A stretch of DNA of 64,000 bases from Octopus vulgaris (taxonomy: Eukaryota), in the NCBI GenBank assembly GCA_951406725.2, contig OX597815.1, forward strand, positions 73,036,001 through 73,100,000. The letters are read 5' to 3'. Positions 10,884 to 33,011 of the stretch are shown here, piece after piece; positions within the stretch are counted from its first letter, which is position 1, and each line of letters opens with the position of its first letter. The position numbers and the translations under genes are program-made. Below the pieces are notes generated by a model that saw nothing but the letters and a program-made list of their open reading frames with translations, made no database searches and had not been told where the DNA came from.

Positions 10884-11100
10884 ATTTTTCCTTGGATTAC
10901 GTCGGATTATTTTACGCTGTAAGCTGTTATGTTAGTTCGTTCTGTTCTGGATTTACACGTACAATTTTTGGAGTATTAACTTGTGAAACAAAGTAATTTT
11001 CGCCCTTCGGGGTAGAAAATTTCTTTTTATATATGAACTTTAATTCAGTGTGGATTTAATTTTTATCTTGTCTCTTGTGACAAGTCACTTGCATTTTATT

Positions 11101-12582
11101 ATGGATCTTGACTTAACGTCAAATTCTGATTTTCCCGAGATGGGAGAAGTTATAAAGCAAAAGGATACAAAGGAGAAACAAAGTTTTTCGGAAGCCGTTG
11201 GAGGCAATGTTATAGAACTGGAAGTAACAATGGAGGATCTCTTCAAGTTCAGAAAGTTCATACAAAGGAATGGAGAAGAAACGAGAATAATACCGCCCCC
11301 TGACACCTTACAAGCAATCCGTGAGAAGACGGTAATTTATAAGGTATATAATATTAAGGAAAAAAAGATTGCAGATGTAAGAAATGAATTGGTAGAACGG
11401 TGCATGGCACCAATTTGGAACAAGGTTCGCTATGTTGGCCGAGGAGTGAGAAGCGCTACTATTGAAGCGCATTTCGAGTCGGCTAGCATAGCGAAGGAAA
11501 TTTCAACTCAAACGTTGAAGAGTGCAGACATCCTGTTGCTGCCCACGTACTTAGGGCGCAGAACAGCTAAGATAACAATAGAGGATATACCAACAGGTTA
11601 CGATGTAATGTGGGCAGCAACAGCGGTCGTATTCGACGTAGAAGAGAAATTAAACATTTTAAACATGAGGATGAAAGAGGCAAAATTTTGGAAAGGTCAG
11701 CAGCTTGAAATGATCGTTCAAGCTGACAATGCAACGCTGGAGAGTTTGCCAGACAGGGTCTTCGTGGGGGATGGACACACTGCGCGGGTATCGGTTGAGG
11801 GACGTAGGCCCAGATGTTTCAAATGTGGGCAGAAGGGTCACGTCCGCTCAGAGTGCAAAAAGAAAAAACCCGTTAATGCCCCCATTCAAACCGCTGTGGA
11901 GAACAAAGCAGACATCACAGCAACAACTAAAGAGAATACCCGGAAAAAGCAAAATGAAAGTCAAAAGGAGGAAAAGAAAATGAATGGAAAACAAAGCGAA
12001 AACGAAAACGAGGTGGAAAATATTTTATCAAATGGAAAAGAACTGGAAGTAATGGAATATACGACTGTAACCAACAAAAGGAAGAAATCCAATACCCCGG
12101 ACTCCCCACCCCAAACAAAAAGAAAAACAAACGCAGAAGAACAACACAAAAAAATTATCCAATCCCACCCCGCTGGCACTACTTTTGTAGGCCAGCATTT
12201 CATTAAACCCCAGCCCCCAACTTTAAAAGGATTCAAAAAAACCGATAGGTGCATTGCTTATAACATAAAAAACGAGAGAGTAGTTTGGTACATAAAGGCG
12301 AAACCAAACATAAAATGTTTCAAATCATCGGAAAAAAACCCGGATTGGAGGTATGCGAAGGTTGGAGAGGAGGAATGGAAGGAGAGACTCTTCCAACTAC
12401 ACGTGAGGGACAACCTGATTAAAGATGTCACACAAGAGGTGATAGCTGGAAAATTGAATATTAGCCCGGCAGCCACTCCATCCCAGAGCCCGGTGGCAAC
12501 GCCGGTTAAATGCCCAGCAACAACGGAGAGTGTGGGGGAGGCAGGCAGACAAAAGCTGCCATGCTCCCTCTCACAACCGTAA
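11101..12582 (+). CDS. ORF1 gag-like nucleic-acid-binding protein with CCHC zinc knuckle
   Basis: CFKCGQKGHVRSEC knuckle; first ATG at 11101 (ORF track starts at GTG 11050). Confidence 0.88.
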   Translation: MDLDLTSNSDFPEMGEVIKQKDTKEKQSFSEAVGGNVIELEVTMEDLFKFRKFIQRNGEETRIIPPPDTLQAIREKTVIYKVYNIKEKKIADVRNELVERCMAPIWNKVRYVGRGVRSATIEAHFESASIAKEISTQTLKSADILLLPTYLGRRTAKITIEDIPTGYDVMWAATAVVFDVEEKLNILNMRMKEAKFWKGQQLEMIVQADNATLESLPDRVFVGDGHTARVSVEGRRPRCFKCGQKGHVRSECKKKKPVNAPIQTAVENKADITATTKENTRKKQNESQKEEKKMNGKQSENENEVENILSNGKELEVMEYTTVTNKRKKSNTPDSPPQTKRKTNAEEQHKKIIQSHPAGTTFVGQHFIKPQPPTLKGFKKTDRCIAYNIKNERVVWYIKAKPNIKCFKSSEKNPDWRYAKVGEEEWKERLFQLHVRDNLIKDVTQEVIAGKLNISPAATPSQSPVATPVKCPATTESVGEAGRQKLPCSLSQP

Positions 12583-12606
12583 GTAACAAACTTTCTTCAT
12601 TCATCG

Positions 12607-15600
12607 ATGATTAAGTTGGGCTGTATAAATGTGCGTGGAATGGGGTCGAAATGGAAACAGGCTTGCTTGCTGGACGACCTCAGGACACACAGAATAGATG
12701 TAGCCATTGTCACCGAGTCCAAGATGAGAGGAACCCAAGCGTTCTCGCATCTTCTCAATGGTTACGAGAAATTTATTTCTCCTAGCCGAGGAGGAAGTGC
12801 AGGCGTGGCAGTCCTTATCAGGAAGAACTTGGACTTACAGGTAAGTACTGTCTTTATGGACCCAGAAGGTAGGCTGGTTGTCCTCGATGTAACTCACGTA
12901 AGTAAGCAGTCCTTCAGGTTGGTAGCTGTTTATGCTCCTAATGAGGGTAGGCAGACTGGTTTTTATCGGAACTTGGAGCACTTTCTAGTGACGTCTAAAA
13001 CGGTAGTATTGGTAGGGGATTTCAACACTATCATCGATGCGCGGATAGATAGTGTGGGCTCGTCTGATAGAAGGGGGAATCCTTGCCTTAAGGGTCTACT
13101 GACGAGCTTTAATCTAGTAGATCGGTTTCGAATGGATGAGCCGAGCATTCCACAGTGGACGTGGAGTAACAATGACGGCTCACGCAGATCGTATATAGAT
13201 AGGGTATTTGTTAAAGAACGAGATAGGAATAGCATTAGCTGTCCACAATTTTGTATTGTGCCTTACACGGATCACAAATTAGTGACGTGTGAGGTACATG
13301 TAGATAAATGCCATAGACAGGGACCCGGATACTGGAAAATGAACAAGTCTATTTTGGCTTGTGAAGCTTTCCGTAACCGGATTATGGAATTAGTCCAGAG
13401 GGCATTATGTGGAACCATCATTAATAATAGATGGTGGATCGCCCTCAAAAGAGCCATCCGTTTGGAGTCCATTAGATTTAGCAACCAGCTAAGTTTAGAT
13501 AGGACTAGAATAGAGGGCGATTTAGTTAAGAACTTAGACGAGGCAATGGGATCTGGCTGTGCATCTAGAGTGTTAGCAGAGAGAACGATCTTGTACCGTC
13601 ACCTCAATGCCAAGCATGAAGGATGTAGAGTCAGAGCTAAGCTACGTGCAGTGAAACGAGAAGGTATTAATGTTGCCGGATGGGCACGTCGTGTGGAGAG
13701 TCAGAAGGGCAAAAAGTCCTCTATTAAGTCTTTAACTGACGAACAGGGACGCAAAATCTATGGACAGGAGGAGATACAGAAGGTCTTTCAACAGCATTTC
13801 GCTCGGTTGTTTGGGGAGGGCGATCCACTCGAGCGAGGGGAGGACTTACAGAACTTCCTAGCTGGTGGGCCTCGGCTCTCGCCAAGCAGAGCTGAACGCT
13901 GTGAAGGACCGATTACTCCCGCGGAGGTAAGAGGGGTTTTGGCTGAATGCGCCCGGGAAAAGTCGCCGGGACTGGATGGTCTGCCCTATGAGTTTTATTG
14001 TTGTATGCCGGACTTGTTCGGGGACATACTGGCAAGCGTCTACGCAAACTGGCAACAGAATGGGAGGATTCCCAGTTCTGTGAGCCGGGGAGTTGTGACG
14101 CTGATCCAGAAAGACCCGAGCAAGGGGGATAATATTAGTAATTATAGGCCCATAACTCTACTTAATGTAGAGTTAAAGATTTTGGCCAAGGTGTTAGCAG
14201 AAAGGTTGAAGGTCGTCATGGAAAAACTTGTCGGAAAGGCACAGACATGTGCAATCCCAGGCAGGTCGATCGAAGATAATCTTCACCTTCTACGCTACAC
14301 TATAGACAGGGTTGGGCAATTAGCCGGCAAAGGAGGGGCATTGGTCCATTTAGACCAAAGTAAAGCATTTGATAGGGTAGATCATCAGTACCTGGCGACG
14401 GTTCTCGAAGCGGCTGGGCTAGGTCCTGACTTTCGCGGGTGGATATCAGCTATGTACAGCGGTATCAAGTCCACAGTCCAGATAAACGGTTACTTAACGG
14501 AACCATTTTCGATTAAGCGTTCAGTTCGTCAAGGATGTCCCTTGTCCCCTCTCCTGTACGTTTTGGCTCTTGAGCCATTGCTGCGGAAGTTGGAGACGGT
14601 GAGATGCAATCCTAATGAAATCGGATGCGGTAAGTCTGTTTCTGCGTATGCGGATGACGTCACCTTCATCGTGTCCAACGAAGCACAACTAACTCGTGTA
14701 GAAGGTGCTCTCCGAAGATACGAAGCGGTGGCTGGGGCAAAAGTTAACAAGGACAAGTCCACTGGTTTGCGCCTCGGCACCTGGAGGAACAAGCCGATAT
14801 CGTCCAGTGTTGTTGGACACTGGACAGATGGTCCTGTTAAATTGCTTGGAGTTTGGTTTGGTTCAGACTCCCAGACGGAGAAAAATTGGAGCGAGGTAGT
14901 GACCAAGGTAGAAGCCATAGTTCGGGAGTGGTCCGGAAGGCATCTTTCCTTGAAAGGGAGGGCGGAGGTGGTACAGGTGTTTATAGCATCTGTAATCACC
15001 TATCGCCTGACTGTCGTGCCTTGCCCCGATTTGTGGCTAAGCAAGTTGGATCGACTCCTTTTCCGCTTTTTGTGGAAGGGAGGAAAGCCACTTGTAAGGC
15101 GCTCCGTGTGTTGCCAGGAACCACTAAAGGGTGGACTGGGGATGCCTTGGTTAATGATGCGCAGGCATGCGCTGAGACTGAGACATCTCTGGTTTCACCT
15201 GGAAGGTGATAAGGTGTGGAGTCCGCTGGCAGATAATTTCTTCCCGCAACCGGACTCTATGGAGAGATTTAAACCCGGTTTCATTAAAAGACGGAACCTG
15301 ACTTTATGGCAGAAAGAGTGCCGACAGGCACTCTGGCTGATCCACAAGATAGGCAAAGCCGGCTGCGGGAATACCACCTCGACATTTTATAGAAGGATGG
15401 TAGAGGCAAAAAATGACGACGTCCTAAGAGGGTCTCTGGGGTTCGATGAGGATCAACTATCCGACCTGTTTAAGAAGACTTTCAAGCCGGGGTATTTGGA
15501 CAATTACCAAAAATCCCTGACTTGGCAGTGCTATAGGAATGCTCTACCTGTTCGCGATAAGTTATATAGGCATGGAATGTCAGTGCCACCGACATGTCCA

Positions 15601-16005
15601 AGATGTGGGTTGGACGATGAAACCGTCCAGCACGCTTTTGTACATTGTCAGGAGCTGTCAGGCTTAATAAGTTACGTAGAACACGTGTTGTCGCATCTGG
15701 GACGAGTACAGCTATCGGCTGGTTCTATAATAAAGATGATACCGCCAGCTGGACTCTCAAAGGAAGGTGAGGCTTGTTTTCACTGTACGGTGGCAGTACT
15801 GAAAGAGTGTGTGTGGAGAACTAGATTGGAAGGTTTGGTGTCAGGAACCTTTGTCTCTGGATATGGTATGTTAAAATACTTCAGATACCATCTAAAGAGC
15901 AAAATGGATTTAGAGAAGAGGAACCTGACACAGAAAAAGTATGTGAATCGATGGAAGGATGTGATAAAAAAGGTGGGTGTGAGTAACCCTGCTTGGTCAT
16001 CATGA
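12607..16005 (+). CDS. ORF2: APE endonuclease + reverse transcriptase + C-terminal CCHC (1132 aa), L1/Tx1 type
   Basis: CINVRG, VYAP, GDFN, YIDR, TDH (APE); GPGYWKMN; KSPGLDGL, NYRPITLLN, LDQSKAFDRV, VRQGCPLSP, YADD (RT); GGLG; CPRC..ETVQHAFVHC. Confidence 0.96.
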   Translation: MIKLGCINVRGMGSKWKQACLLDDLRTHRIDVAIVTESKMRGTQAFSHLLNGYEKFISPSRGGSAGVAVLIRKNLDLQVSTVFMDPEGRLVVLDVTHVSKQSFRLVAVYAPNEGRQTGFYRNLEHFLVTSKTVVLVGDFNTIIDARIDSVGSSDRRGNPCLKGLLTSFNLVDRFRMDEPSIPQWTWSNNDGSRRSYIDRVFVKERDRNSISCPQFCIVPYTDHKLVTCEVHVDKCHRQGPGYWKMNKSILACEAFRNRIMELVQRALCGTIINNRWWIALKRAIRLESIRFSNQLSLDRTRIEGDLVKNLDEAMGSGCASRVLAERTILYRHLNAKHEGCRVRAKLRAVKREGINVAGWARRVESQKGKKSSIKSLTDEQGRKIYGQEEIQKVFQQHFARLFGEGDPLERGEDLQNFLAGGPRLSPSRAERCEGPITPAEVRGVLAECAREKSPGLDGLPYEFYCCMPDLFGDILASVYANWQQNGRIPSSVSRGVVTLIQKDPSKGDNISNYRPITLLNVELKILAKVLAERLKVVMEKLVGKAQTCAIPGRSIEDNLHLLRYTIDRVGQLAGKGGALVHLDQSKAFDRVDHQYLATVLEAAGLGPDFRGWISAMYSGIKSTVQINGYLTEPFSIKRSVRQGCPLSPLLYVLALEPLLRKLETVRCNPNEIGCGKSVSAYADDVTFIVSNEAQLTRVEGALRRYEAVAGAKVNKDKSTGLRLGTWRNKPISSSVVGHWTDGPVKLLGVWFGSDSQTEKNWSEVVTKVEAIVREWSGRHLSLKGRAEVVQVFIASVITYRLTVVPCPDLWLSKLDRLLFRFLWKGGKPLVRRSVCCQEPLKGGLGMPWLMMRRHALRLRHLWFHLEGDKVWSPLADNFFPQPDSMERFKPGFIKRRNLTLWQKECRQALWLIHKIGKAGCGNTTSTFYRRMVEAKNDDVLRGSLGFDEDQLSDLFKKTFKPGYLDNYQKSLTWQCYRNALPVRDKLYRHGMSVPPTCPRCGLDDETVQHAFVHCQELSGLISYVEHVLSHLGRVQLSAGSIIKMIPPAGLSKEGEACFHCTVAVLKECVWRTRLEGLVSGTFVSGYGMLKYFRYHLKSKMDLEKRNLTQKKYVNRWKDVIKKVGVSNPAWSS

Positions 16006-16474
16006 AGGGAGAAAATAGTCTCTGGGCTCTTAGGCTGTCGGGTAAGAATCCTGACTGTGATATATCTAGCTGGCCAAAATCATTTTTAATTTTAAAAAAA
16101 AGGAGAAAAGTAAAGTCTAGTATCATAATCAATAATCAACATATGTAAATATCAAACGAACAACGTAAACTTTTTGTAATTATGTTTTGTATTGTAATGT
16201 ACTATCTCTGTAAGATTTTTATAATCATAATAAAGATTTAGGAAGCGACACCTACTGATTTTTCCTTGGATTACGTCGGATTATTTTACGCTGTAAGCTG
16301 TTATGTTAGTTCGTTCTGTTCTGGATTTACACGTACAATTTTTGGAGTATTAACTTGTGAAACAAAGTAATTTTCGCCCTTCGGGGTAGAAAATTTCTTT
16401 TTATATATGAACTTTAATTCAGTGTGGATTTAATTTTTATCTTGTCTCTTGTGACAAGTCACTTGCATTTTATT

Positions 16475-17955
16475 ATGGATCTTGACTTAACGTCAAATTC
16501 TGATTTTCCCGAGATGGGAGAAGTTATAAAGCAAAAGGATACAAAGGAGAAACAAAGTTTTTCGGAAGCCGTTGGAGGCAATGTTATAGAACTGGAAGTA
16601 ACAATGGAGGATCTCTTCAAGTTCAGAAAGTTCATACAAAGGAATGGAGAAGAAACGAGAATAATACCGCCCCTGACACCTTACAAGCAATCCGTGAGAA
16701 GACGGTAATTTATAAGGTATATAATATTAAGGAAAAAAAGATTGCAGATGTAAGAAATGAATTGGTAGAACGGTGCATGGCACCAATTTGGAACAAGGTT
16801 CGCTATGTTGGCCGAGGAGTGAGAAGCGCTACTATTGAAGCGCATTTCGAGTCGGCTAGCATAGCGAAGGAAATTTCAACTCAAACGTTGAAGAGTGCAG
16901 ACATCCTGTTGCTGCCCACGTACTTAGGGCGCAGAACAGCTAAGATAACAATAGAGGATATACCAACAGGTTACGATGTAATGTGGGCAGCAACAGCGGT
17001 CGTATTCGACGTAGAAGAGAAATTAAACATTTTAAACATGAGGATGAAAGAGGCAAAATTTTGGAAAGGTCAGCAGCTTGAAATGATCGTTCAAGCTGAC
17101 AATGCAACGCTGGAGAGTTTGCCAGACAGGGTCTTCGTGGGGGATGGACACACTGCGCGGGTATCGGTTGAGGGACGTAGGCCCAGATGTTTCAAATGTG
17201 GGCAGAAGGGTCACGTCCGCTCAGAGTGCAAAAAGAAAAAACCCGTTAATGCCCCCATTCAAACCGCTGTGGAGAACAAAGCAGACATCACAGCAACAAC
17301 TAAAGAGAATACCCGGAAAAAGCAAAATGAAAGTCAAAAGGAGGAAAAGAAAATGAATGGAAAACAAAGCGAAAACGAAAACGAGGTGGAAAATATTTTA
17401 TCAAATGGAAAAGAACTGGAAGTAATGGAATATACGACTGTAACCAACAAAAGGAAGAAATCCAATACCCCGGACTCCCCACCCCAAACAAAAAGAAAAA
17501 CAAACGCAGAAGAACAACACAAAAAAATTATCCAATCCCACCCCGCTGGCACTACTTTTGTAGGCCAGCATTTCATTAAACCCCAGCCCCCAACTTTAAA
17601 AGGATTCAAAAAAACCGATAGGTGCATTGCTTATAACACAAAAAACGAGAGAGTAGTTTGGTACATAAAGGCGAAACCAAACATAAAATGTTTCAAATCA
17701 TCGGAAAAAAACCCGGATTGGAGGTATGCGAAGGTTGGAGAGGAGGAATGGAAGGAGAGACTCTTCCAACTACACGTGAGGGACAACCTGATTAAAGATG
17801 TCACACAAGAGGTGATAGCTGGAAAATTGAATATTAGCCCGGCAGCCACTCCATCCCAGAGCCCGGTGGCAACGCCGGTTAAATGCCCAGCAACAACGGA
17901 GAGTGTGGGGGAGGCAGGCAGACAAAAGCTGCCATGCTCCCTCTCACAACCGTAA
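16475..17955 (+). pseudogene. ORF1 of copy C, frameshifted (possibly sequencing error)
   Basis: Split into 16424-16708 and 16762-17955 by C4 vs C5 run. Confidence 0.75.
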
Positions 17956-17979
17956 GTAACAAACTTTCTTCATTCATCG

Positions 17980-20900
17980 ATGATTAAGTTGGGCTGTATA
18001 AATGTGCGTGGAATGGGGTCGAAATGGAAACAGGCTTGCTTGCTGGACGACCTCAGGACACACAGAATAGATGTAGCCATTGTCACCGAGTCCAAGATGA
18101 GAGGAACCCAAGCGTTCTCGCATCTTCTCAATGGTTACGAGAAATTTATTTCTCCTAGCCGAGGAGGAAGTGCAGGCGTGGCAGTCCTTATCAGGAAGAA
18201 CTTGGACTTACAGGTAAGTACTGTCTTTATGGACCCAGAAGGTAGGCTGGTTGTCCTCGATGTAACTCACGTAAGTAAGCAGTCCTTCAGGTTGGTAGCT
18301 GTTTATGCTCCTAATGAGGGTAGGCAGACTGGTTTTTATCGGAACTTGGAGCACTTTCTAGTGACGTCTAAAACGGTAGTATTGGTAGGGGATTTCAACA
18401 CTATCATCGATGCGCGGATAGATAGTGTGGGCTCGTCTGATAGAAGGGGAATCCTTGCCTTAAGGGTCTACTGACGAGCTTTAATCTAGTAGATCGGTTT
18501 CGAATGGATGAGCCGAGCATTCCACAGTGGACGTGGAGTAACAATGACGGCTCACGCAGATCGTATATAGATAGGGTATTTGTTAAAGAACGAGATAGGA
18601 ATAGCATTAGCTGTCCACAATTTTGTATTGTGCCTTACACGGATCACAAATTAGTGACGTGTGAGGTACATGTAGATAAATGCCATAGACAGGGACCCGG
18701 ATACTGGAAAATGAACAAGTCTATTTTGGCTTGTGAAGCTTTCCGTAACCGGATTATGGAATTAGTCCAGAGGGCATTATGTGGAACCATCATTAATAAT
18801 AGATGGTGGATCGCCCTCAAAAGAGCCATCCGTTTGGAGTCCATTAGATTTAGCAACCAGCTAAGTTTAGATAGGACTAGAATAGAGGGCGATTTAGTTA
18901 AGAACTTAGACGAGGCAATGGGATCTGGCTGTGCATCTAGAGTGTTAGCAGAGAGAACGATCTTGTACCGTCACCTCAATGCCAAGCATGAAGGATGTAG
19001 AGTCAGAGCTAAGCTACGTGCAGTGAAACGAGAAGGTATTAATGTTGCCGGATGGGCACGTCGTGTGGAGAGTCAGAAGGGCAAAAAGTCCTCTATTAAG
19101 TCTTTAACTGACGAACAGGGACGCAAAATCTATGGACAGGAGGAGATACAGAAGGTCTTTCAACAGCATTTCGCTCGGTTGTTTGGGGAGGGCGATCCAC
19201 TCGAGCGAGGGGAGGACTTACAGAACTTCCTAGCTGGTGGGCCTCGGCTCTCGCCAAGCAGAGCGGAACGCTGTGAAGGACCGATTACTCCCGCGGAGGT
19301 AAGAGGGGTTTTGGCTGAATGCGCCCGGGAAAAGTCGCCGGGACTGGATGGTCTGCCCTATGAGTTTTATTGTTGTATGCCGGACTTGTTCGGGGACATA
19401 CTGGCAAGCGTCTACGCAAACTGGCAACAGAATGGGAGGATTCCCAGTTCTGTGAGCCGGGGAGTTGTGACGCTGATCCAGAAAGACCCGAGCAAGGGGG
19501 ATAATATTAGTAATTATAGGCCCATAACTCTACTTAATGTAGAGTTAAAGATTTTGGCCAAGGTGTTAGCAGAAAGGTTGAAGGTCGTCATGGAAAAACT
19601 TGTCGGAAAGGCACAGACATGTGCAATCCCAGGCAGGTCGATCGAAGATAATCTTCACCTTCTACGCTACACTATAGACAGGGTTGGGCAATTAGCCGGC
19701 AAAGGAGGGGCATTGGTCCATTTAGACCAAAGTAAAGCATTTGATAGGGTAGATCATCAGTACCTGGCGACGGTTCTCGAAGCGGCTGGGCTAGGTCCTG
19801 ACTTTCGCGGGTGGATATCAGCTATGTACAGCGGTATCAAGTCCACAGTCCAGATAAACGGTTACTTAACGGAACCATTTTCGATTAAGCGTTCAGTTCG
19901 TCAAGGATGTCCCTTGTCCCCTCTCCTGTACGTTTTGGCTCTTGAGCCATTGCTGCGGAAGTTGGAGACGGTGAGATGCAATCCTAATGAAATCGGATGC
20001 GGTAAGTCTGTTTCTGCGTATGCGGATGACGTCACCTTCATCGTGTCCAACGAAGCACAACTAACTCGTGTAGAAGGTGCTCTCCGAAGATACGAAGCGG
20101 TGGCTGGGGCAAAAGTTAACAAGGACAAGTCCACTAGTTTGCGCCTCGGCACCTGGAGGAACAAGCCGATATCGTCCAGTGTTGTTGGACACTGGACAGA
20201 TGGTCCTGTTAAATTGCTTGGAGTTTGGTTTGGTTCAGACTCCCAGACGGAGAAAAATTGGAGCGAGGTAGTGACCAAGGTAGAAGCCATAGTTCGGGAG
20301 TGGTCCGGAAGGCATCTTTCCTTGAAAGGGAGGGCGGAGGTGGTACAGGTGTTTATAGCATCTGTAATCACCTATCGCCTGACTGTCGTGCCTTGCCCCG
20401 ATTTGTGGCTAAGCAAGTTGGATCGACTCCTTTTCCGCTTTTTGTGGAAGGGAGGAAAGCCACTTGTAAGGCGCTCCGTGTGTTGCCAGGAACCACTAAA
20501 GGGTGGGCTGGGGATGCCTTGGTTAATGATGCGCAGGCATGCGCTGAGACTGAGACATCTCTGGTTTCACCTGGAAGGTGATAAGGTGTGGAGTCCGCTG
20601 GCAGATAATTTCTTCCCGCAACCGGACTCTATGGAGAGATTTAAACCCGGTTTCATTAAAAGACGGAACCTGACTTTATGGCAGAAAGAGTGCCGACAGG
20701 CACTCTGGCTGATCCACAAGATAGGCAAAGCCGGCTGCGGGAATACCACCTCGACATTTTATAGAAGGATGGTAGAGGCAAAAAATGACGACGTCCTAAG
20801 AGGGTCTCTGGGGTTCGATGAGGATCAACTATCCGACCTGTTTAAGAAGACTTTCAAGCCGGGGTATTTGGACAATTACCAAAAATCCCTGACTTGGCAG

Positions 20901-21377
20901 TGCTATAGGAATGCTCTACCTGTTCGCGATAAGTTATATAGGCATGGAATGTCAGTGCCACCGACATGTCCAAGATGTGGGTTGGACGATGAAACCGTCC
21001 AGCACGCTTTTGTACATTGTCAGGAGCTGTCAGGCTTAATAAGTTACGTAGAACACGTGTTGTCGCATCTGGGACGAGTACAGCTATCGGCTGGTTCTAT
21101 AATAAAGATGATACCGCCAGCTGGACTCTCAAAGGAAGGTGAGGCTTGTTTTCACTGTACGGTGGCAGTACTGAAAGAGTGTGTGTGGAGAACTAGATTG
21201 GAAGGTTTGGTGTCAGGAACCTTTGTCTCTGGATATGGTATGTTAAAATACTTCAGATACCATCTAAAGAGCAAAATGGATTTAGAGAAGAGGAACCTGA
21301 CACAGAAAAAGTATGTGAATCGATGGAAGGATGTGATAAAAAAGGTGGGTGTGAGTAACCCTGCTTGGTCATCATGA
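17980..21377 (+). pseudogene. ORF2 of copy C, frameshifted (possibly sequencing error)
   Basis: Split into 17980-18474 and 18504-21377 by G4 vs G5 run. Confidence 0.75.
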
Positions 21378-21613
21378 AGGGAGAAAATAGTCTCTGGGCT
21401 CTTAGGCTGTCGGGTAAGAATCCTGACTGTGATATATCTAGCTGGCCAAAATCATTTTTAATTTTAAAAAAAAAGGAGAAAAGTAAAGTCTAGTATCATA
21501 ATCAATAATCAACATATGTAAATATCAAACGAACAACGTAAACTTTTTGTAATTATGTTTTGTATTGTAATGTACTATCTCTGTAAGATTTTTATAATCA
21601 TAATAAAGATTTA

Positions 21614-21992
21614 GGAAGCGACACCTACTGGCTGGCTACGCTGCATTGAAAAGGGGCAATACCCTGAAACGCGTCTGTAGCTGCCGGTCAAGTAGTGTGG
21701 AGCGACTAGACCTCCCTTGTTCGAAGGTTATATGGATACAGTTTGTGTATCAAATAGCTAACTTAAGGCGATGGCCTCATGGAGCTAATAAGCGGACAGC
21801 TTTTTCTTATTTTTATAAGAATGCCATATTAGTATGGCGATAACTATTATTTTCCGGGAACGCTGCCGCTGTTCTCTTTTAGAGAGACTTAGTTATTTTA
21901 ATATTTCTATTATTGAAAACAAGTGGATGTATTCCACCGAAACTAGGTAAATAAAACCATCGAACAGAGATTGTCGGAAGCGACACCTACTG
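21614..21992 (+). repeat. One full period of the 362-bp hammerhead repeat between LINE copies C and D
   Basis: Nearly identical to 8261-8622; 17-mer to 17-mer distance is 362 bp. Confidence 0.93.
21627..21688 (+). ncRNA. Minimal type I hammerhead ribozyme (copy 2)
   Basis: Same motif as 8274-8335; GCCAGT>GCCGGT change converts a U-A pair to U-G. Confidence 0.8.
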
Positions 21993-22209
21993 ATTTTTCC
22001 TTGGATTACGTCGGATTATTTTACGCTGTAAGCTGTTATGTTAGTTCGTTCTGTTCTGGATTTACACGTACAATTTTTGGAGTATTAACTTGTGAAACAA
22101 AGTAATTTTCGCCCTTCGGGGTAGAAAATTTCTTTTTATATATGAACTTTAATTCAGTGTGGATTTAATTTTTATCTTGTCTCTTGTGACAAGTCACTTG
22201 CATTTTATT

Positions 22210-23689
22210 ATGGATCTTGACTTAACGTCAAATTCTGATTTTCCCGAGATGGGAGAAGTTATAAAGCAAAAGGATACAAAGGAGAAACAAAGTTTTTCGG
22301 AAGCCGTTGGAGGCAATGTTATAGAACTGGAAGTAACAATGGAGGATCTCTTCAAGTTCAGAAAGTTCATACAAAGGAATGGAGAAGAAACGAGAATAAT
22401 ACCGCCCCCTGACACCTTACAAGCAATCCGTGAGAAGACGGTAATTTATAAGGTATATAATATTAAGGAAAAAAAGATTGCAGATGTAAGAAATGAATTG
22501 GTAGAACGGTGCATGGCACCAATTTGGAACAAGGTTCGCTATGTTGGCCGAGGAGTGAGAAGCGCTACTATTGAAGCGCATTTCGAGTCGGCTAGCATAG
22601 CGAAGGAAATTTCAACTCAAACGTTGAAGAGTGCAGACATCCTGTTGCTGCCCACGTACTTAGGGCGCAGAACAGCTAAGATAACAATAGAGGATATACC
22701 AACAGGTTACGATGTAATGTGGGCAGCAACAGCGGTCGTATTCGACGTAGAAGAGAAATTAAACATTTTAAACATGAGGATGAAAGAGGCAAAATTTTGG
22801 AAAGGTCAGCAGCTTGAAATGATCGTTCAAGCTGACAATGCAACGCTGGAGAGTTTGCCAGACAGGGTCTTCGTGGGGGATGGACACACTGCGCGGGTAT
22901 CGGTTGAGGGACGTAGGCCCAGATGTTTCAAATGTGGGCAGAAGGGTCACGTCCGCTCAGAGTGCAAAAGAAAAAACCCGTTAATGCCCCCATTCAAACC
23001 GCTGTGGAGAACAAAGCAGACATCACAGCAACAACTAAAAGAATACCCGGAAAAAGCAAAATGAAAGTCAAAAGGAGGAAAAGAAAATGAATGGAAAACA
23101 AAGCGAAAACGAAAACGAGGTGGAAAATATTTTATCAAATGGAAAAGAACTGGAAGTAATGGAATATACGACTGTAACCAACAAAAGGAAGAAATCCAAT
23201 ACCCCGGACTCCCCACCCCAAACAAAAAGAAAAACAAACGCAGAAGAACAACACAAAAAAATTATCCAATCCCACCCCGCTGGCACTACTTTTGTAGGCC
23301 AGCATTTCATTAAACCCCAGCCCCCAACTTTAAAAGGATTCAAAAAAACCGATAGGTGCATTGCTTATAACATAAAAAACGAGAGAGTAGTTTGGTACAT
23401 AAAGGCGAAACCAAACATAAAATGTTTCAAATCATCGGAAAAAAACCCGGATTGGAGGTATGCGAAGGTTGGAGAGGAGGAATGGAAGGAGAGACTCTTC
23501 CAACTACACGTGAGGGACAACCTGATTAAAGATGTCACACAAGAGGTGATAGCTGGAAAATTGAATATTAGCCCGGCAGCCACTCCATCCCAGAGCCCGG
23601 TGGCAACGCCGGTTAAATGCCCAGCAACAACGGAGAGTGTGGGGGAGGCAGGCAGACAAAAGCTGCCATGCTCCCTCTCACAACCGTAA
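22210..23689 (+). pseudogene. ORF1 of copy D, frameshifted (possibly sequencing error)
   Basis: Small deletions in A-rich runs near 22970 and 23040. Confidence 0.7.
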
Positions 23690-23713
23690 GTAACAAACTT
23701 TCTTCATTCATCG

Positions 23714-26700
23714 ATGATTAAGTTGGGCTGTATAAATGTGCGTGGAATGGGGTCGAAATGGAAACAGGCTTGCTTGCTGGACGACCTCAGGACACACAGA
23801 ATAGATGTAGCCATTGTCACCGAGTCCAAGATGAGAGGAACCCAAGCGTTCTCGCATCTTCTCAATGGTTACGAGAAATTTATTTCTCCTAGCCGAGGAG
23901 GAAGTGCAGGCGTGGCAGTCCTTATCAGGAAGAACTTGGACTTACAGGTAAGTACTGTCTTTATGGACCCAGAAGGTAGGCTGGTTGTCCTCGATGTAAC
24001 TCACGTAAGTAAGCAGTCCTTCAGGTTGGTAGCTGTTTATGCTCCTAATGAGGGTAGGCAGACTGGTTTTTATCGGAACTTGGAGCACTTTCTAGTGACG
24101 TCTAAAACGGTAGTATTGGTAGGGGATTTCAACACTATCATCGATGCGCGGATAGATAGTGTGGGCTCGTCTGATAGAAGGGGGAATCCTTGCCTTAAGG
24201 GTCTACTGACGAGCTTTAATCTAGTAGATCGGTTTCGAATGGATGAGCCGAGCATTCCACAGTGGACGTGGAGTAACAATGACGGCTCACGCAGATCGTA
24301 TATAGATAGGGTATTTGTTAAAGAACGAGATAGGAATAGCATTAGCTGTCCACAATTTTGTATTGTGCCTTACACGGATCACAAATTAGTGACGTGTGAG
24401 GTACATGTAGATAAATGCCATAGACAGGGACCCGGATACTGGAAAATGAACAAGTCTATTTTGGCTTGTGAAGCTTTCCGTAACCGGATTATGGAATTAG
24501 TCCAGAGGGCATTATGTGGAACCATCATTAATAATAGATGGTGGATCGCCCTCAAAAGAGCCATCCGTTTGGAGTCCATTAGATTTAGCAACCAGCTAAG
24601 TTTAGATAGGACTAGAATAGAGGGCGATTTAGTTAAGAACTTAGACGAGGCAATGGGATCTGGCTGTGCATCTAGAGTGTTAGCAGAGAGAACGATCTTG
24701 TACCGTCACCTCAATGCCAAGCATGAAGGATGTAGAGTCAGAGCTAAGCTACGTGCAGTGAAACGAGAAGGTATTAATGTTGCCGGATGGGCACGTCGTG
24801 TGGAGAGTCAGAAGGGCAAAAAGTCCTCTATTAAGTCTTTAACTGACGAACAGGGACGCAAAATCTATGGACAGGAGGAGATACAGAAGGTCTTTCAACA
24901 GCATTTCGCTCGGTTGTTTGGGGAGGGCGATCCACTCGAGCGAGGGGAGGACTTACAGAACTTCCTAGCTGGTGGGCCTCGGCTCTCGCCAAGCAGAGCT
25001 GAACGCTGTGAAGGACCGATTACTCCCGCGGAGGTAAGAGGGGTTTTGGCTGAATGCGCCCGGGAAAAGTCGCCGGGACTGGATGGTCTGCCCTATGAGT
25101 TTTATTGTTGTATGCCGGACTTGTTCGGGGACATACTGGCAAGCGTCTACGCAAACTGGCAACAGAATGGGAGGATTCCCAGTTCTGTGAGCCGGGGAGT
25201 TGTGACGCTGATCCAGAAAGACCCGAGCAAGGGGGATAATATTAGTAATTATAGGCCCATAACTCTACTTAATGTAGAGTTAAAGATTTTGGCCAAGGTG
25301 TTAGCAGAAAGGTTGAAGGTCGTCATGGAAAAACTTGTCGGAAAGGCACAGACATGTGCAATCCCAGGCAGGTCGATCGAAGATAATCTTCACCTTCTAC
25401 GCTACACTATAGACAGGGTTGGGCAATTAGCCGGCAAAGGAGGGGCATTGGTCCATTTAGACCAAAGTAAAGCATTTGATAGGGTAGATCATCAGTACCT
25501 GGCGACGGTTCTCGAAGCGGCTGGGCTAGGTCCTGACTTTCGCGGGTGGATATCAGCTATGTACAGCGGTATCAAGTCCACAGTCCAGATAAACGGTTAC
25601 TTAACGGAACCGTTTTCGATTAAGCGTTCAGTTCGTCAAGGATGTCCCTTGTCCCCTCTCCTGTACGTTTTGGCTCTTGAGCCATTGCTGCGGAAGTTGG
25701 AGACGGTGAGATGCAATCCTAATGAAATCGGATGCGGTAAGTCTGTTTCTGCGTATGCGGATGACGTCACCTTCATCGTGTCCAACGAAGCACAACTAAC
25801 TCGTGTAGAAGGTGCTCTCCGAAGATACGAAGCGGTGGCTGGGGCAAAAGTTAACAAGGACAAGTCCACTGGTTTGCGCCTCGGCACCTGGAGGAACAAG
25901 CCGATATCGTCCAGTGTTGTTGGACACTGGACAGATGGTCCTGTTAAATTGCTTGGAGTTTGGTTTGGTTCAGACTCCCAGACGGAGAAAAATTGGAGCG
26001 AGGTAGTGACCAAGGTAGAAGCCATAGTTCGGGAGTGGTCCGGAAGGCATCTTTCCTTGAAAGGGAGGGCGGAGGTGGTACAGGTGTTTATAGCATCTGT
26101 AATCACCTATCGCCTGACTGTCGTGCCTTGCCCCGATTTGTGGCTAAGCAAGTTGGATCGACTCCTTTTCCGCTTTTTGTGGAAGGGAGGAAAGCCACTT
26201 GTAAGGCGCTCCGTGTGTTGCCAGGAACCACTAAAGGGTGGGCTGGGGATGCCTTGGTTAATGATGCGCAGGCATGCGCTGAGACTGAGACATCTCTGGT
26301 TTCACCTGGAAGGTGATAAGGTGTGGAGTCCGCTGGCAGATAATTTCTTCCCGCAACCGGACTCTATGGAGAGATTTAAACCCGGTTTCATTAAAAGACG
26401 GAACCTGACTTTATGGCAGAAAGAGTGCCGACAGGCACTCTGGCTGATCCACAAGATAGGCAAAGCCGGCTGCGGGAATACCACCTCGACATTTTATAGA
26501 AGGATGGTAGAGGCAAAAAATGACGACGTCCTAAGAGGGTCTCTGGGGTTCGATGAGGATCAACTATCCGACCTGTTTAAGAAGACTTTCAAGCCGGGGT
26601 ATTTGGACAATTACCAAAAATCCCTGACTTGGCAGTGCTATAGGAATGCTCTACCTGTTCGCGATAAGTTATATAGGCATGGAATGTCAGTGCCACCGAC

Positions 26701-27112
26701 ATGTCCAAGATGTGGGTTGGACGATGAAACCGTCCAGCACGCTTTTGTACATTGTCAGGAGCTGTCAGGCTTAATAAGTTACGTAGAACACGTGTTGTCG
26801 CATCTGGGACGAGTACAGCTATCGGCTGGTTCTATAATAAAGATGATACCGCCAGCTGGACTCTCAAAGGAAGGTGAGGCTTGTTTTCACTGTACGGTGG
26901 CAGTACTGAAAGAGTGTGTGTGGAGAACTAGATTGGAAGGTTTGGTGTCAGGAACCTTTGTCTCTGGATATGGTATGTTAAAATACTTCAGATACCATCT
27001 AAAGAGCAAGATGGATTTAGAGAAGAGGAACCTGACACAGAAAAAGTATGTGAATCGATGGAAGGATGTGATAAAAAAGGTGGGTGTGAGTAACCCTGCT
27101 TGGTCATCATGA
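23714..27112 (+). CDS. ORF2 APE-RT-CCHC of copy D (intact)
   Basis: 1132 aa, same motifs as copy B. Confidence 0.96.
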   Translation: MIKLGCINVRGMGSKWKQACLLDDLRTHRIDVAIVTESKMRGTQAFSHLLNGYEKFISPSRGGSAGVAVLIRKNLDLQVSTVFMDPEGRLVVLDVTHVSKQSFRLVAVYAPNEGRQTGFYRNLEHFLVTSKTVVLVGDFNTIIDARIDSVGSSDRRGNPCLKGLLTSFNLVDRFRMDEPSIPQWTWSNNDGSRRSYIDRVFVKERDRNSISCPQFCIVPYTDHKLVTCEVHVDKCHRQGPGYWKMNKSILACEAFRNRIMELVQRALCGTIINNRWWIALKRAIRLESIRFSNQLSLDRTRIEGDLVKNLDEAMGSGCASRVLAERTILYRHLNAKHEGCRVRAKLRAVKREGINVAGWARRVESQKGKKSSIKSLTDEQGRKIYGQEEIQKVFQQHFARLFGEGDPLERGEDLQNFLAGGPRLSPSRAERCEGPITPAEVRGVLAECAREKSPGLDGLPYEFYCCMPDLFGDILASVYANWQQNGRIPSSVSRGVVTLIQKDPSKGDNISNYRPITLLNVELKILAKVLAERLKVVMEKLVGKAQTCAIPGRSIEDNLHLLRYTIDRVGQLAGKGGALVHLDQSKAFDRVDHQYLATVLEAAGLGPDFRGWISAMYSGIKSTVQINGYLTEPFSIKRSVRQGCPLSPLLYVLALEPLLRKLETVRCNPNEIGCGKSVSAYADDVTFIVSNEAQLTRVEGALRRYEAVAGAKVNKDKSTGLRLGTWRNKPISSSVVGHWTDGPVKLLGVWFGSDSQTEKNWSEVVTKVEAIVREWSGRHLSLKGRAEVVQVFIASVITYRLTVVPCPDLWLSKLDRLLFRFLWKGGKPLVRRSVCCQEPLKGGLGMPWLMMRRHALRLRHLWFHLEGDKVWSPLADNFFPQPDSMERFKPGFIKRRNLTLWQKECRQALWLIHKIGKAGCGNTTSTFYRRMVEAKNDDVLRGSLGFDEDQLSDLFKKTFKPGYLDNYQKSLTWQCYRNALPVRDKLYRHGMSVPPTCPRCGLDDETVQHAFVHCQELSGLISYVEHVLSHLGRVQLSAGSIIKMIPPAGLSKEGEACFHCTVAVLKECVWRTRLEGLVSGTFVSGYGMLKYFRYHLKSKMDLEKRNLTQKKYVNRWKDVIKKVGVSNPAWSS

Positions 27113-27582
27113 AGGGAGAAAATAGTCTCTGGGCTCTTAGGCTGTCGGGTAAGAATCCTGACTGTGATATACCTAGCTGGCCAAAATCATTTTTAATTTT
27201 AAAAAAAAAGGAGAAAAGTAAAGTCTAGTATCATAATCAATAATCAACATATGTAAATATCAAACGAACAACGTAAACTTTTTGTAATTATGTTTTGTAT
27301 TGTAATGTACTATCTCTGTAAGATTTTTATAATCATAATAAAGATTTAGGAAGCGACACCTACTGATTTTTCCTTGGATTACGTCGGATTATTTTACGCT
27401 GTAAGCTGTTATGTTAGTTCGTTCTGTTCTGGATTTACACGTACAATTTTTGGAGTATTAACTTGTGAAACAAAGTAATTTTCGCCCTTCGGGGTAGAAA
27501 ATTTCTTTTTATATATGAACTTTAATTCAGTGTGGATTTAATTTTTATCTTGTCTCTTGTGACAAGTCACTTGCATTTTATT

Positions 27583-29064
27583 ATGGATCTTGACTTAACG
27601 TCAAATTCTGATTTTCCCGAGATGGGAGAAGTTATAAAGCAAAAGGATACAAAGGAGAAACAAAGTTTTTCGGAAGCCGTTGGAGGCAATGTTATAGAAC
27701 TGGAAGTAACAATGGCGGATCTCTTCAAGTTCAGAAAGTTCATACAAAGGAATGGAGAAGAAACGAGAATAATACCGCCCCCTGACACCTTACAAGCAAT
27801 CCGTGAGAAGACGGTAATTTATAAGGTATATAATATTAAGGAAAAAAAGATTGCAGATGTAAGAAATGAATTGGTAGAACGGTGCATGGCACCAATTTGG
27901 AACAAGGTTCGCTATGTTGGCCGAGGAGTGAGAAGCGCTACTATTGAAGCGCATTTCGAGTCGGCTAGCATAGCGAAGGAAATTTCAACTCAAACGTTGA
28001 AGAGTGCAGACATCCTGTTGCTGCCCACGTACTTAGGGCGCAGAACAGCTAAGATAACAATAGAGGATATACCAACAGGTTACGATGTAATGTGGGCAGC
28101 AACAGCGGTCGTATTCGACGTAGAAGAGAAATTAAACATTTTAAACATGAGGATGAAAGAGGCAAAATTTTGGAAAGGTCAGCAGCTTGAAATGATCGTT
28201 CAAGCTGACAATGCAACGCTGGAGAGTTTGCCAGACAGGGTCTTCGTGGGGGATGGACACACTGCGCGGGTATCGGTTGAGGGGCGTAGGCCCAGATGTT
28301 TCAAATGTGGGCAGAAGGGTCACGTCCGCTCAGAGTGCAAAAAGAAAAAACCCGTTAATGCTCCCATTCAAACCGCTGTGGAGAACAAAGCAGACATCAC
28401 AGCAACAACTAAAGAGAATACCCGGAAAAAGCAAAATGAAAGTCAAAAGGAGGAAAAGAAAATGAATGGAAAACAAAGCGAAAACGAAAACGAGGTGGAA
28501 AATATTTTATCAAATGGAAAAGAACTGGAAGTAATGGAATATACGACTGTAACCAACAAAAGGAAGAAATCCAATACCCCGGACTCCCCACCCCAAACAA
28601 AAAGAAAAACAAACGCAGAAGAACAACACAAAAAAATTATCCAATCCCACCCCGCTGGCACTACTTTTGTAGGCCAGCATTTCATTAAACCCCAGCCCCC
28701 AACTTTAAAAGGATTCAAAAAAACCGATAGGTGCATTGCTTATAACACAAAAAACGAGAGAGTAGTTTGGTACATAAAGGCGAAACCAAACATAAAATGT
28801 TTCAAATCATCGGAAAAAAACCCGGATTGGAGGTATGCGAAGGTTGGAGAGGAGGAATGGAAGGAGAGACTCTTCCAACTACACGTGAGGGACAACCTGA
28901 TTAAAGATGTCACACAAGAGGTGATAGCTGGAAAATTGAATATTAGCCCGGCAGCCACTCCATCCCAGAGCCCGGTGGCAACGCCGGTTAAATGCCCAGC
29001 AACAACGGAGAGTGTGGGGGAGGCAGGCAGACAAAAGCTGCCATGCTCCCTCTCACAACCGTAA
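27583..29064 (+). CDS. ORF1 with CCHC zinc knuckle (copy E)
   Basis: Intact, near-identical to copy B ORF1. Confidence 0.88.
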   Translation: MDLDLTSNSDFPEMGEVIKQKDTKEKQSFSEAVGGNVIELEVTMADLFKFRKFIQRNGEETRIIPPPDTLQAIREKTVIYKVYNIKEKKIADVRNELVERCMAPIWNKVRYVGRGVRSATIEAHFESASIAKEISTQTLKSADILLLPTYLGRRTAKITIEDIPTGYDVMWAATAVVFDVEEKLNILNMRMKEAKFWKGQQLEMIVQADNATLESLPDRVFVGDGHTARVSVEGRRPRCFKCGQKGHVRSECKKKKPVNAPIQTAVENKADITATTKENTRKKQNESQKEEKKMNGKQSENENEVENILSNGKELEVMEYTTVTNKRKKSNTPDSPPQTKRKTNAEEQHKKIIQSHPAGTTFVGQHFIKPQPPTLKGFKKTDRCIAYNTKNERVVWYIKAKPNIKCFKSSEKNPDWRYAKVGEEEWKERLFQLHVRDNLIKDVTQEVIAGKLNISPAATPSQSPVATPVKCPATTESVGEAGRQKLPCSLSQP

Positions 29065-29088
29065 GTAACAAACTTTCTTCATTCATCG

Positions 29089-32000
29089 ATGATTAAGTTG
29101 GGCTGTATAAATGTGCGTGGAATGGGGTCGAAATGGAAACAGGCTTGCTTGCTGGACGACCTCAGGACACACAGAATAGATGTAGCCATTGTCACCGAGT
29201 CCAAGATGAGAGGAACCCAAGCGTTCTCGCATCTTCTCAATGGTTACGAGAAATTTATTTCTCCTAGCCGAGGAGGAAGTGCAGGCGTGGCAGTCCTTAT
29301 CAGGAAGAACTTGGACTTACAGGTAAGTACTGTCTTTATGGACCCAGAAGGTAGGCTGGTTGTCCTCGATGTAACTCACGTAAGTAAGCAGTCCTTCAGG
29401 TTGGTAGCTGTTTATGCTCCTAATGAGGGTAGGCAGACTGGTTTTTATCGGAACTTGGAGCACTTTCTAGTGACGTCTAAAACGGTAGTATTGGTAGGGG
29501 ATTTCAACACTATCATCGATGCGCGGATAGATAGTGTGGGCTCGTCTGATAGAAGGGGGAATCCTTGCCTTAAGGGTCTACTGACGAGCTTTAATCTAGT
29601 AGATCGGTTTCGAATGGATGAGCCGAGCATTCCACAGTGGACGTGGAGTAACAATGACGGCTCACGCAGATCGTATATAGATAGGGTATTTGTTAAAGAA
29701 CGAGATAGGAATAGCATTAGCTGTCCACAATTTTGTATTGTGCCTTACACGGATCACAAATTAGTGACGTGTGAGGTACATGTAGATAAATGCCATAGAC
29801 AGGGACCCGGATACTGGAAAATGAACAAGTCTATTTTGGCTTGTGAAGCTTTCCGTAACCGGATTATGGAATTAGTCCAGAGGGCATTATGTGGAACCAT
29901 CATTAATAATAGATGGTGGATCGCCCTCAAAAGAGCCATCCGTTTGGAGTCCATTAGATTTAGCAACCAGCTAAGTTTAGATAGGACTAGAATAGAGGGC
30001 GATTTAGTTAAGAACTTAGACGAGGCAATGGGATCTGGCTGTGCATCTAGAGTGTTAGCAGAGAGAACGATCTTGTACCGTCACCTCAATGCCAAGCATG
30101 AAGGATGTAGAGTCAGAGCTAAGCTACGTGCAGTGAAACGAGAAGGTATTAATGTTGCCGGATGGGCACGTCGTGTGGAGAGTCAGAAGGGCAAAAAGTC
30201 CTCTATTAAGTCTTTAACTGACGAACAGGGACGCAAAATCTATGGACAGGAGGAGATACAGAAGGTCTTTCAACAGCATTTCGCTCGGTTGTTTGGGGAG
30301 GGCGATCCACTCGAGCGAGGGGAGGACTTACAGAACTTCCTAGCTGGTGGGCCTCGGCTCTCGCCAAGCAGAGCGGAACGCTGTGAAGGACCGATTACTC
30401 CCGCGGAGGTAAGAGGGGTTTTGGCTGAATGCGCCCGGGAAAAGTCGCCGGGACTGGATGGTCTGCCCTATGAGTTTTATTGTTGTATGCCGGACTTGTT
30501 CGGGGACATACTGGCAAGCGTCTACGCAAACTGGCAACAGAATGGGAGGATTCCCAGTTCTGTGAGCCGGGGAGTTGTGACGCTGATCCAGAAAGACCCG
30601 AGCAAGGGGGATAATATTAGTAATTATAGGCCCATAACTCTACTTAATGTAGAGTTAAAGATTTTGGCCAAGGTGTTAGCAGAAAGGTTGAAGGTCGTCA
30701 TGGAAAAACTTGTCGGAAAGGCACAGACATGTGCAATCCCAGGCAGGTCGATCGAAGATAATCTTCACCTTCTACGCTACACTATAGACAGGGTTGGGCA
30801 ATTAGCCGGCAAAGGAGGGGCATTGGTCCATTTAGACCAAAGTAAAGCATTTGATAGGGTAGATCATCAGTACCTGGCGACGGTTCTCGAAGCGGCTGGG
30901 CTAGGTCCTGACTTTCGCGGGTGGATATCAGCTATGTACAGCGGTATCAAGTCCACAGTCCAGATAAACGGTTACTTAACGGAACCGTTTTCGATTAAGC
31001 GTTCAGTTCGTCAAGGATGTCCCTTGTCCCCTCTCCTGTACGTTTTGGCTCTTGAGCCATTGCTGCGGAAGTTGGAGACGGTGAGATGCAATCCTAATGA
31101 AATCGGATGCGGTAAGTCTGTTTCTGCGTATGCGGATGACGTCACCTTCATCGTGTCCAACGAAGCACAACTAACTCGTGTAGAAGGTGCTCTCCGAAGA
31201 TACGAAGCGGTGGCTGGGGCAAAAGTTAACAAGGACAAGTCCACTGGTTTGCGCCTCGGCACCTGGAGGAACAAGCCGATATCGTCCAGTGTTGTTGGAC
31301 ACTGGACAGATGGTCCTGTTAAATTGCTTGGAGTTTGGTTTGGTTCAGACTCCCAGACGGAGAAAAATTGGAGCGAGGTAGTGACCAAGGTAGAAGCCAT
31401 AGTTCGGGAGTGGTCCGGAAGGCATCTTTCCTTGAAAGGGAGGGCGGAGGTGGTACAGGTGTTTATAGCATCTGTAATCACCTATCGCCTGACTGTCGTG
31501 CCTTGCCCCGATTTGTGGCTAAGCAAGTTGGATCGACTCCTTTTCCGCTTTTTGTGGAAGGGAGGAAAGCCACTTGTAAGGCGCTCCGTGTGTTGCCAGG
31601 AACCACTAAAGGGTGGGCTGGGGATGCCTTGGTTAATGATGCGCAGGCATGCGCTGAGACTGAGACATCTCTGGTTTCACCTGGAAGGTGATAAGGTGTG
31701 GAGTCCGCTGGCAGATAATTTCTTCCCGCAACCGGACTCTATGGAGAGATTTAAACCCGGTTTCATTAAAAGACGGAACCTGACTTTATGGCAGAAAGAG
31801 TGCCGACAGGCACTCTGGCTGATCCACAAGATAGGCAAAGCCGGCTGCGGGAATACCACCTCGACATTTTATAGAAGGATGGTAGAGGCAAAAAATGACG
31901 ACGTCCTAAGAGGGGCTCTGGGGTTCGATGAGGATCAACTATCCGACCTGTTTAAGAAGACTTTCAAGCCGGGGTATTTGGACAATTACCAAAAATCCCT

Positions 32001-32487: not shown

Positions 32488-32722
32488 AGGGAGAAAATAG
32501 TCTCTGGGCTCTTAGGCTGTCGGGTAAGAATCCTGACTGTGATATACCTAGCTGGCCAAAATCATTTTTAATTTTAAAAAAAAGGAGAAAAGTAAAGTCT
32601 AGTATCATAATCAATAATCAACATATGTAAATATCAAACGAACAACGTAAACTTTTTGTAATTATGTTTTGTATTGTAATGTACTATCTCTGTAAGATTT
32701 TTATAATCATAATAAAGATTTA

Positions 32723-32998: not shown

Positions 32999-33011
32999 AT
33001 TTATATTTCTA

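Follow-up and report, generated by a model that had tools for sequence, protein, structure and literature searches.

Site-specific LINEs of the Tx1 clade, such as Tx1L in Tx1D, Keno in U2 and Tx1-Mar in Mariner-N4, are APE-RT elements with multicopy targets, mobile elements included; tandem copies around one TSD, heads derived in some cases from U1 or U2, and a proposed transcription from the flank are described for them in the available passages of PMC4494074 and PMC4640811. R2, as treated in excerpts of PMC3774820 and PMC6530143, likely co-opts the transcription of its target, has uniform 5′ junctions and is aided in integration by target sequence at both RNA ends; it uses an RLE endonuclease, and its HDV-like ribozyme is encoded by the element itself and cuts ≤36 nt upstream of the junction (PMC3774820, same excerpt). 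Animal non-LTR retrozymes form dispersed short arrays of tandem units with one type I hammerhead per unit and a GC content below 50% (PMC7229834; 10.64898/2026.07.22.740005; in part). Newt satellite 2 is reported to be a hammerhead repeat that contains a Pol II promoter of snRNA type and cleaves in a dimer-dependent manner (PMC2220036, citing Coats et al. 1994; in part).

The window, i.e. the whole 64,000-nucleotide stretch of Octopus vulgaris DNA that was analysed (contig OX597815.1, 73,036,001 to 73,100,000), holds a LINE array at a hammerhead-bearing repeat. An initial annotation of this DNA had proposed that the LINE borrows both the transcription and the ribozyme of its target. We consider it rather probable (about 0.58) that the LINE captures an snRNA-type promoter and that its RNA is cleaved behind AATAAA inside the downstream TSD, the ribozyme being likely a bystander. 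Its observed parts are the site specificity, the TSD, the position of the promoter motif, the ends shared with relatives at U1 and U2, and the minority allele of the ribozyme.

The tandem array and its insertion site

The young 5.36-kb LINE is present in five same-strand copies (A to E) at 8620-32722, which are 99.6-99.9% alike and are arranged in the order unit, truncated A, TSD, B, TSD, C, TSD plus unit, TSD, D, TSD, E, TSD plus unit, (TA)n (Table 1). ORF1 carries a CCHC knuckle, and ORF2 carries APE endonuclease, RT and zf-RVT domains. An ORF1 zinc knuckle, an ORF2 with APE, RT and a C-terminal zinc motif, and target specificity are Tx1-type features, and the LINE is a putative member of Tx1; its protein atlas matches bear no clade name.

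Table 1. Features of the array in the window (positions of the 64,000-nucleotide stretch).
Feature	Position	Strand	Remarks
PSE-like motif	8204-8218	+	ahead of unit 8261..8619
Retrozyme-like unit	8261..8619	+	empty target site at 8261; hammerhead 8287-8328; 3′ end shortened where truncated LINE A joins
LINE copy A	8620..10866	+	5′-truncated; without 5′ TSD; 5′ junction approximate
LINE copy B	10884..16240	+	both ORFs open, 512 and 1140 aa stop to stop
LINE copy C	16258..21613	+	tail-less 3′ end; AATAAA 21602-21607
17-bp TSD behind C	21614..21630	+	equals the first 17 nt of the unit; 7-23 nt past AATAAA
One 362-bp repeat unit between C and D	21614..21975	+	dispersed, tandem, retrozyme-like
Type I hammerhead	21640..21681	+	helix I 21640-45/21676-81; predicted cut after 21675 (C17)
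PSE-like motif	21919..21933	+	-57 from first base of TSD at 21976
TSD ahead of D	21976..21992	+	predicted transcription start 21976
LINE copy D	21993..27348	+	ORF1 ATG 22210, frame broken in D; ORF2 23690-27112
LINE copy E	27366..32722	+	both ORFs open
TSD + last unit	32723..33020	+	hammerhead 32748-32789, cut after 32783; stops near unit position 297 in (TA)n

The geometry given in the initial annotation was confirmed: LINE C ends without poly(A), the hammerhead lies on the strand of the LINE, the distance from the predicted cut is 45 nt back to the TSD and 317 nt on to D, and the TSD restores the complete fold, since its bases 21622-21630 belong to the extended helix I. What lets the hammerhead survive is solely that the TSD stops 9 nt short of helix I. 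This arrangement is not due to chance, since all 18 non-tandem 3′ ends of the subfamily are followed by TSD and hammerhead. The further claim that an insertion which separates the hammerheads could hinder dimeric cleavage is a sound inference; by the map of the insertion, the hammerheads come to lie 5.7 kb apart and the promoter is parted from its unit.

Within the window a hammerhead follows only C and E and precedes only D. Copies A, B and D are each followed by a TSD and the next LINE, and B has TSD and LINE on either side with no adjoining hammerhead. Two ribozyme cuts would free A+B+C (13,353 nt) or D+E (11,108 nt), never one element, and no window copy is singly bracketed by two hammerheads. 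Two private changes are common to A, B and C, and two others to B and D, so recombination or assembly mixing contributed to the array. Among the 3′ ends found genome-wide, this is the sole tandem array of the subfamily; it would likely have grown by repeated insertion at the restored site plus recombination. Elsewhere in the window, an interstitial (TTAGGG)n tract of about 100 bp (46481-46580) and a SINE-like repeat, with a tandem pair and a diverged third copy (7042-7550 and 50149-50317), were observed.

An exact search with the LINE 3′ end gave 28 places, 21 of which belong to this subfamily. All 21 end at unit position +1, 18 before a hammerhead and three before another LINE (all three in the window); counted by locus, 16/16 are on target. 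Truncated copies occupy the same site, one of them with a TSD of 16-17 bp, which points to independent target-primed insertions. None of the 21 copies is located in U1 or U2, so promoter tethering alone does not explain the choice of site. The on-target share of the retrozyme-type LINE (16/16 loci) differs from that of its U1-type sister, described below (1/10; Fisher p=3e-6).

The hammerhead repeat

The target unit (362 bp, GC 41%) is a dispersed tandem repeat with one type I hammerhead per unit and at least 860 genomic copies, the sum of 784 and 76 exact hammerhead copies; the repeat survey started from 1180 first-look candidates, 40 of which were scored. Tandem units of 150-450 bp with one type I hammerhead each, GC below 50% and a multicopy state are the marks of non-LTR retrozymes, and by these marks the repeat fits an animal non-LTR retrozyme. 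A hammerhead belonging to the LINE, as a terminal repeat, was ruled out: units without LINE exist in hundreds of copies, and LINEs without units exist as well.

In the minimal type I hammerhead between C and D, helix I is followed by the core U3-U4-G5-A6-A7-A8-A9 (21646-52) with a U3-A8 pair and a GUC cut site, by helix II (21653-56/21662-65), in which the minority pair G10.1-U11.1 is found, and by a palindromic helix III of 2 bp (21669-74). Three helices thus surround a conserved core with a 3-8 pair and an NUH cut site. A scan of the window with Rfam gave no match at gathering score; the call is drawn from the fold, the covariation between copies and the U3-A8 variant, a covariant core published for Schistosoma PLEs (excerpt of PMC4209133). 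In an older repeat variant, N7 and the 10.1-11.1 pair change compatibly. An alternative register, with helix I from 21635 and the core taken for a damaged CUGAnGA, was dropped, helix I at 21640 giving a regular U3-A8 core. The 2-bp palindromic helix III belongs to a type for which efficient cleavage is reported only in dimers (PMC4209133, PMC7229834; in part).

All three hammerheads of the window carry U11.1 (21665 in the central one), which is found in 76 genomic copies against 784 with C11.1. By fold prediction, the catalytic register of helix II has a pairing probability of 0.11 with U11.1 and of 0.98 with the major allele; with U11.1, A9 would be pulled into a shifted helix II. Closure of helix II in the catalytic register, typically by G10.1-C11.1, is thus not predicted for the window copies, which have G-U. 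The ribozyme that had been annotated as intact is therefore complete in sequence, but carries an allele predicted to misfold, and its activity at this locus is doubtful on this model. The U11.1 allele is present as whole arrays at many loci (L002-L030), which implies that the allele itself was spread and that cleavage may either not be needed or be provided in trans.

Three of the 36 retrozyme arms have their start at unit positions 60-66, close to the cut at 63 (Poisson p=0.03), which hints weakly at cleavage of the target-repeat family in vivo. At LINE-free loci (n=19), 34 of 35 arm ends are near unit positions 237 or 300 and none is at the cut site; an inverted arm is present at many target-repeat loci. 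The PSE-like motif overlaps a small hairpin (21923-21937), and in 6/36 arms a 5′ break is located just past motif and hairpin, at unit positions 323-333.

Ends of the LINE RNA

The PSE matrix was built from eight non-redundant U1/U2 upstream regions only, the genes being chosen by their own shared motif. By this matrix the best score in the unit is at -57 from the first base of the TSD (rank 1 of 724 positions; 9.7 bits, next 4.4); 6/5000 shuffles reach it, and the top site is the same at three widths. The score is inside the leave-one-out range of real genes (8.6-16.6), at its low end, and the offset compares with -56 to -61 at U1/U2 genes, so that a PSE-like motif stands at a U1/U2-like distance from +1, as in an snRNA-type promoter. 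We infer that the motif is a working promoter; the likely start of the RNA would be at the TSD, 300 nt downstream of the cut, and an upstream ribozyme would then not be in the RNA. The motif is kept in 12/12 dispersed full-length copies, the upstream hammerhead in 7/12. Tandem copies B, C and E are without the motif at -57 (score -8.5), so B and E, the ORFs of which are open, would depend on read-through or on a promoter inside the element. A PSE-like motif also stands, within other repeats, 81-83 nt ahead of the heads of relatives whose 5′ UTR is about 70% alike (L081, L082, L084, L085, L086).

These 5′ ends bear on the full model of the initial annotation, in which two hammerheads cut the LINE from a retrozyme co-transcript, define both its ends and allow large circles. 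Retrozyme monomers are circularised in this manner (PMC7229834, in part), and the uniform 5′ junctions resemble those of R2s cut upstream in the target (excerpt of PMC3774820). Seven of the 12 dispersed full-length copies do have a hammerhead on either side, but the other five are without the upstream one, three of these with both ORFs open (C15, C5a, C11). Together with B, C and E, which also have none upstream, and with a distance of 317 nt where one is present, this differs from an R2-like release, for which each full-length copy should have a ribozyme close to or at its 5′ junction. The two ribozymes, 5.7 kb apart, would have to dimerise, and the resulting RNA would be uncapped and have six more upstream AUGs. 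Ribozyme processing of both LINE ends is, with no singly bracketed copy in the window, very improbable.

No DNA trace of LINE-containing circles was found in the upstream flanks examined. None of 13 flanks begins at the cut site, a sample too small to exclude rare events; 5′ duplications that begin at the cut site make up about 5-10% in R2 of some species. Flanking units carry the haplotype of their local array, and at 7/7 loci with more than one upstream unit the sequence runs on into another unit and not into the LINE 3′ end expected of a rolling circle, which rules out joint movement of LINE and unit as a circle for these seven; circle movement may still apply to five loci with less upstream sequence. 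A 69-bp LINE piece in the inverted arm at C11 is read here as an independent truncated insertion that has a TSD of 10 bp.

At the 3′ end, the TSD occupies positions +7 to +23 counted from AATAAA, and the predicted cut of the ribozyme follows at +68. Poly(A) cleavage usually falls 10-30 nt past AATAAA; here it would likely fall in or just past the downstream TSD and give a target-matching RNA end, alike in the retrozyme, tandem and U1 contexts. The same tail-less end is found in relatives. A sister group was drawn from the best 30 of 41 3′-UTR matches; its ten members are tail-less, have AATAAA 6 nt before the end and are without hammerhead. One of their 3′ ends abuts U1 +1 (Rfam) and nine are elsewhere, seven of these before ATAC. 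More distant relatives (74-83% aa) have a tail-less end at U2 +1 in three of 30 U2 loci examined (of 56). Because these relatives are tail-less without a ribozyme, the missing tail is a trait of the lineage and no sign of ribozyme use; because they end in the same way at the first base of U1 or U2, the LINE likely takes a promoter and does not need the ribozyme.

The sisters also bear on the 5′ end. Two sister heads equal U1 +1..+17, the same length as the 17-bp TSD at the retrozyme. One of the group, full-length L091 (C15:21147700-21156100), bears this head and lies outside U1, flanked by two U2 genes in inverted orientation; the U1-headed sister at a non-U1 site has 95% identity with D along its whole length, and the divergence of two truncated sisters from D is about 2%. 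As the non-U1 site shares only a short stretch with the head, the head came with the RNA. At an off-target sister (L100, junction C13:63954563), one extra A stands at the 3′ junction relative to the TSD, as if the first U1 read-through base had been copied. Inside a cluster of >20 U1 genes (C18:49.00-49.05 Mb; L092-L094), nested LINE fragments of several related families are piled up, and one 3′ UTR in the pile holds a U1 5′-like stretch.

A combination, in which the borrowed promoter sets the 5′ end and the downstream hammerhead trims read-through RNA to a 62-nt target-matching 3′ end, hence the precision, appears unlikely. Its best argument, and that of the initial annotation, is R2Ol: a 3′ end of target sequence only raised insertion from 12% to 98% and did far better than one that ran on into vector and a poly(A) signal (PMC6530143, in part); by analogy a trimmed end could beat a tailed one, and retrozyme RNA, being abundant, could act in trans as the dimer partner. 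A hammerhead stands behind 18/18 non-tandem 3′ ends, most dispersed copies have the well-folding allele, and the arm starts near the cut add their weak hint. The helix III is of the dimer-needing type, however, a second hammerhead is found ≤400 nt downstream at only 3/15 dispersed loci, and the cut is 45 nt beyond the expected action of AATAAA. The difference in on-target rate fits trimming, but the low rate of the sister is more simply accounted for by about 42 U1 starts against at least 860 retrozyme copies, and by selection against U1 insertions.

Transcript data were contigs of runs X1-X3 and X7, which are only guessed to be RNA. An X1 contig bridges unit to LINE (21963-22130, depth 9.8), and an X3 contig bridges LINE to hammerhead up to 41 nt past the cut (depth 4.6), the nature of both runs being guessed. 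The X3 contig best fits the copy at C4:57.33 Mb, the ribozyme of which is mutated in helix I and helix III (dimer duplex -2.3 vs -7.5 kcal/mol), and thus says nothing of intact ribozymes. One contig, from a run likewise guessed to be RNA, starts 13 nt upstream of the predicted start and enters the LINE; it may be read-through or DNA. Single-copy flank has zero cover in X1-X3 and 39-61 in X16; with a LINE/single-copy ratio of about 27 in X16, a small carry-over of DNA could suffice for the LINE signal. C at 21665 is near 100% in these runs, which matches the genomic majority and is uninformative. Among the matches listed from these presumed RNA runs, no poly(A) loose ends were found.

We return to promoter capture with cleavage behind AATAAA as the best explanation. 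An APE-type LINE would insert at the first base of the 362-bp hammerhead repeat, with a 17-bp duplication, 57 nt behind the snRNA-type motif. The borrowed promoter would start a capped RNA at the TSD, and the 17 nt of target at its 5′ end would help to join the cDNA. A putative element of this scheme is efficient use of AATAAA by an snRNA-promoter transcript; cleavage there would leave about 4-24 nt of target-matching RNA, which would pair with the nicked strand and prime reverse transcription at the last LINE base, so that no A-tail would be copied. The U1 head at a non-U1 site, the sister 3′ end that abuts U1 +1 and the relatives at U2 +1 count for it; the low-end motif score, copies B, C and E without motif, the 0/21 in U1/U2 and the contig start 13 nt upstream count against it. 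Of the earlier proposal, borrowed target transcription and a target-complementary 3′ sequence thus stay plausible, with indirect support, and the ribozyme probably supplies neither end.

Change of target and relation to known systems

Of most interest is that the target switched from U1 to retrozyme within a divergence of about 2-4%. Over the 161 endonuclease residues covered by both U1-type copies (numbered from the first codon of the ORF at 23690), the common differences from the retrozyme type are D31N, R34M and M92L; R154 differs in each U1-type copy. The loop aligned to the specificity hairpin of L1 is unchanged in the single, decayed U1-type copy that covers it; point mutants left the nicking pattern of L1 unchanged (excerpt of PMC1950540). 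The change of site from ATAC to RGAA with few protein changes suggests that RNA ends or promoter-bound factors may pick the site.

These comparisons tell on an ordinary site-specific LINE, with its own internal promoter and poly(A) signal, an endonuclease that picks the site and a repeat that is a harmless multicopy target. Targeting by the endonuclease is the default for such LINEs (PMC4494074, in part), truncated copies have hit this very site, in one case with a TSD of 16-17 bp, and an enzyme preference would also give the ATAC at 7/9 off-target sister sites. This account must, however, allow ATAC to become RGAA through three endonuclease changes with the specificity loop unchanged, a demand to be seen against the L1 mutants above, and it leaves unexplained both the U1 head at a non-U1 site and the common placement of the three kinds of site (retrozyme, U1, U2) some 57 nt downstream of one motif; we regard it, too, as improbable.

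Promoter capture might also extend to the inheritance of the target, through the RNA and not the protein. A chance insertion behind a retrozyme promoter would have created a master with retrozyme-matching read-through ends, and the family would have switched from U1 to retrozyme with almost no endonuclease change; the target hammerhead would trim a pure 62-nt guide and give near-perfect targeting. We put this forward tentatively, as a rather unlikely extension.

The two LINE subfamilies form a natural pair, only 2-4% apart, with unrelated targets (U1 start and retrozyme start) at equal distance behind an snRNA-type motif, which makes the shares of endonuclease, promoter-bound factors and RNA-end target sequence in targeting directly testable. 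If RNA ends dominate, LINE targeting could be reprogrammed by RNA. The position of the motif also suggests a site of transcription start in an animal retrozyme.

In the open-licence literature no paper was found on a LINE that targets retrozymes or snRNA-type start sites; related families could be listed in Repbase-type catalogues or in the supplementary target tables of Kojima. The present LINE resembles the Tx1-clade elements in its APE-RT make-up, its multicopy target, its tandem copies around one TSD and the U1-derived heads of its sisters, and it differs from them in that the target is a hammerhead repeat and the site a predicted transcription start placed like U1/U2 +1. With R2 it shares uniform 5′ junctions and, on the reading preferred here, the use of target transcription and of target sequence at both RNA ends; unlike in R2, the ribozyme is part of the target; it lies 317 nt off and is missing upstream of 5/12 copies. 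The target resembles animal non-LTR retrozymes in unit structure, GC content and dispersal, and differs in its U3-A8 core. Newt satellite 2 combines hammerhead, internal snRNA-type promoter and dimer-dependent cleavage as proposed for this target, and the relevant passages of PMC2220036 mention no LINE that targets it.
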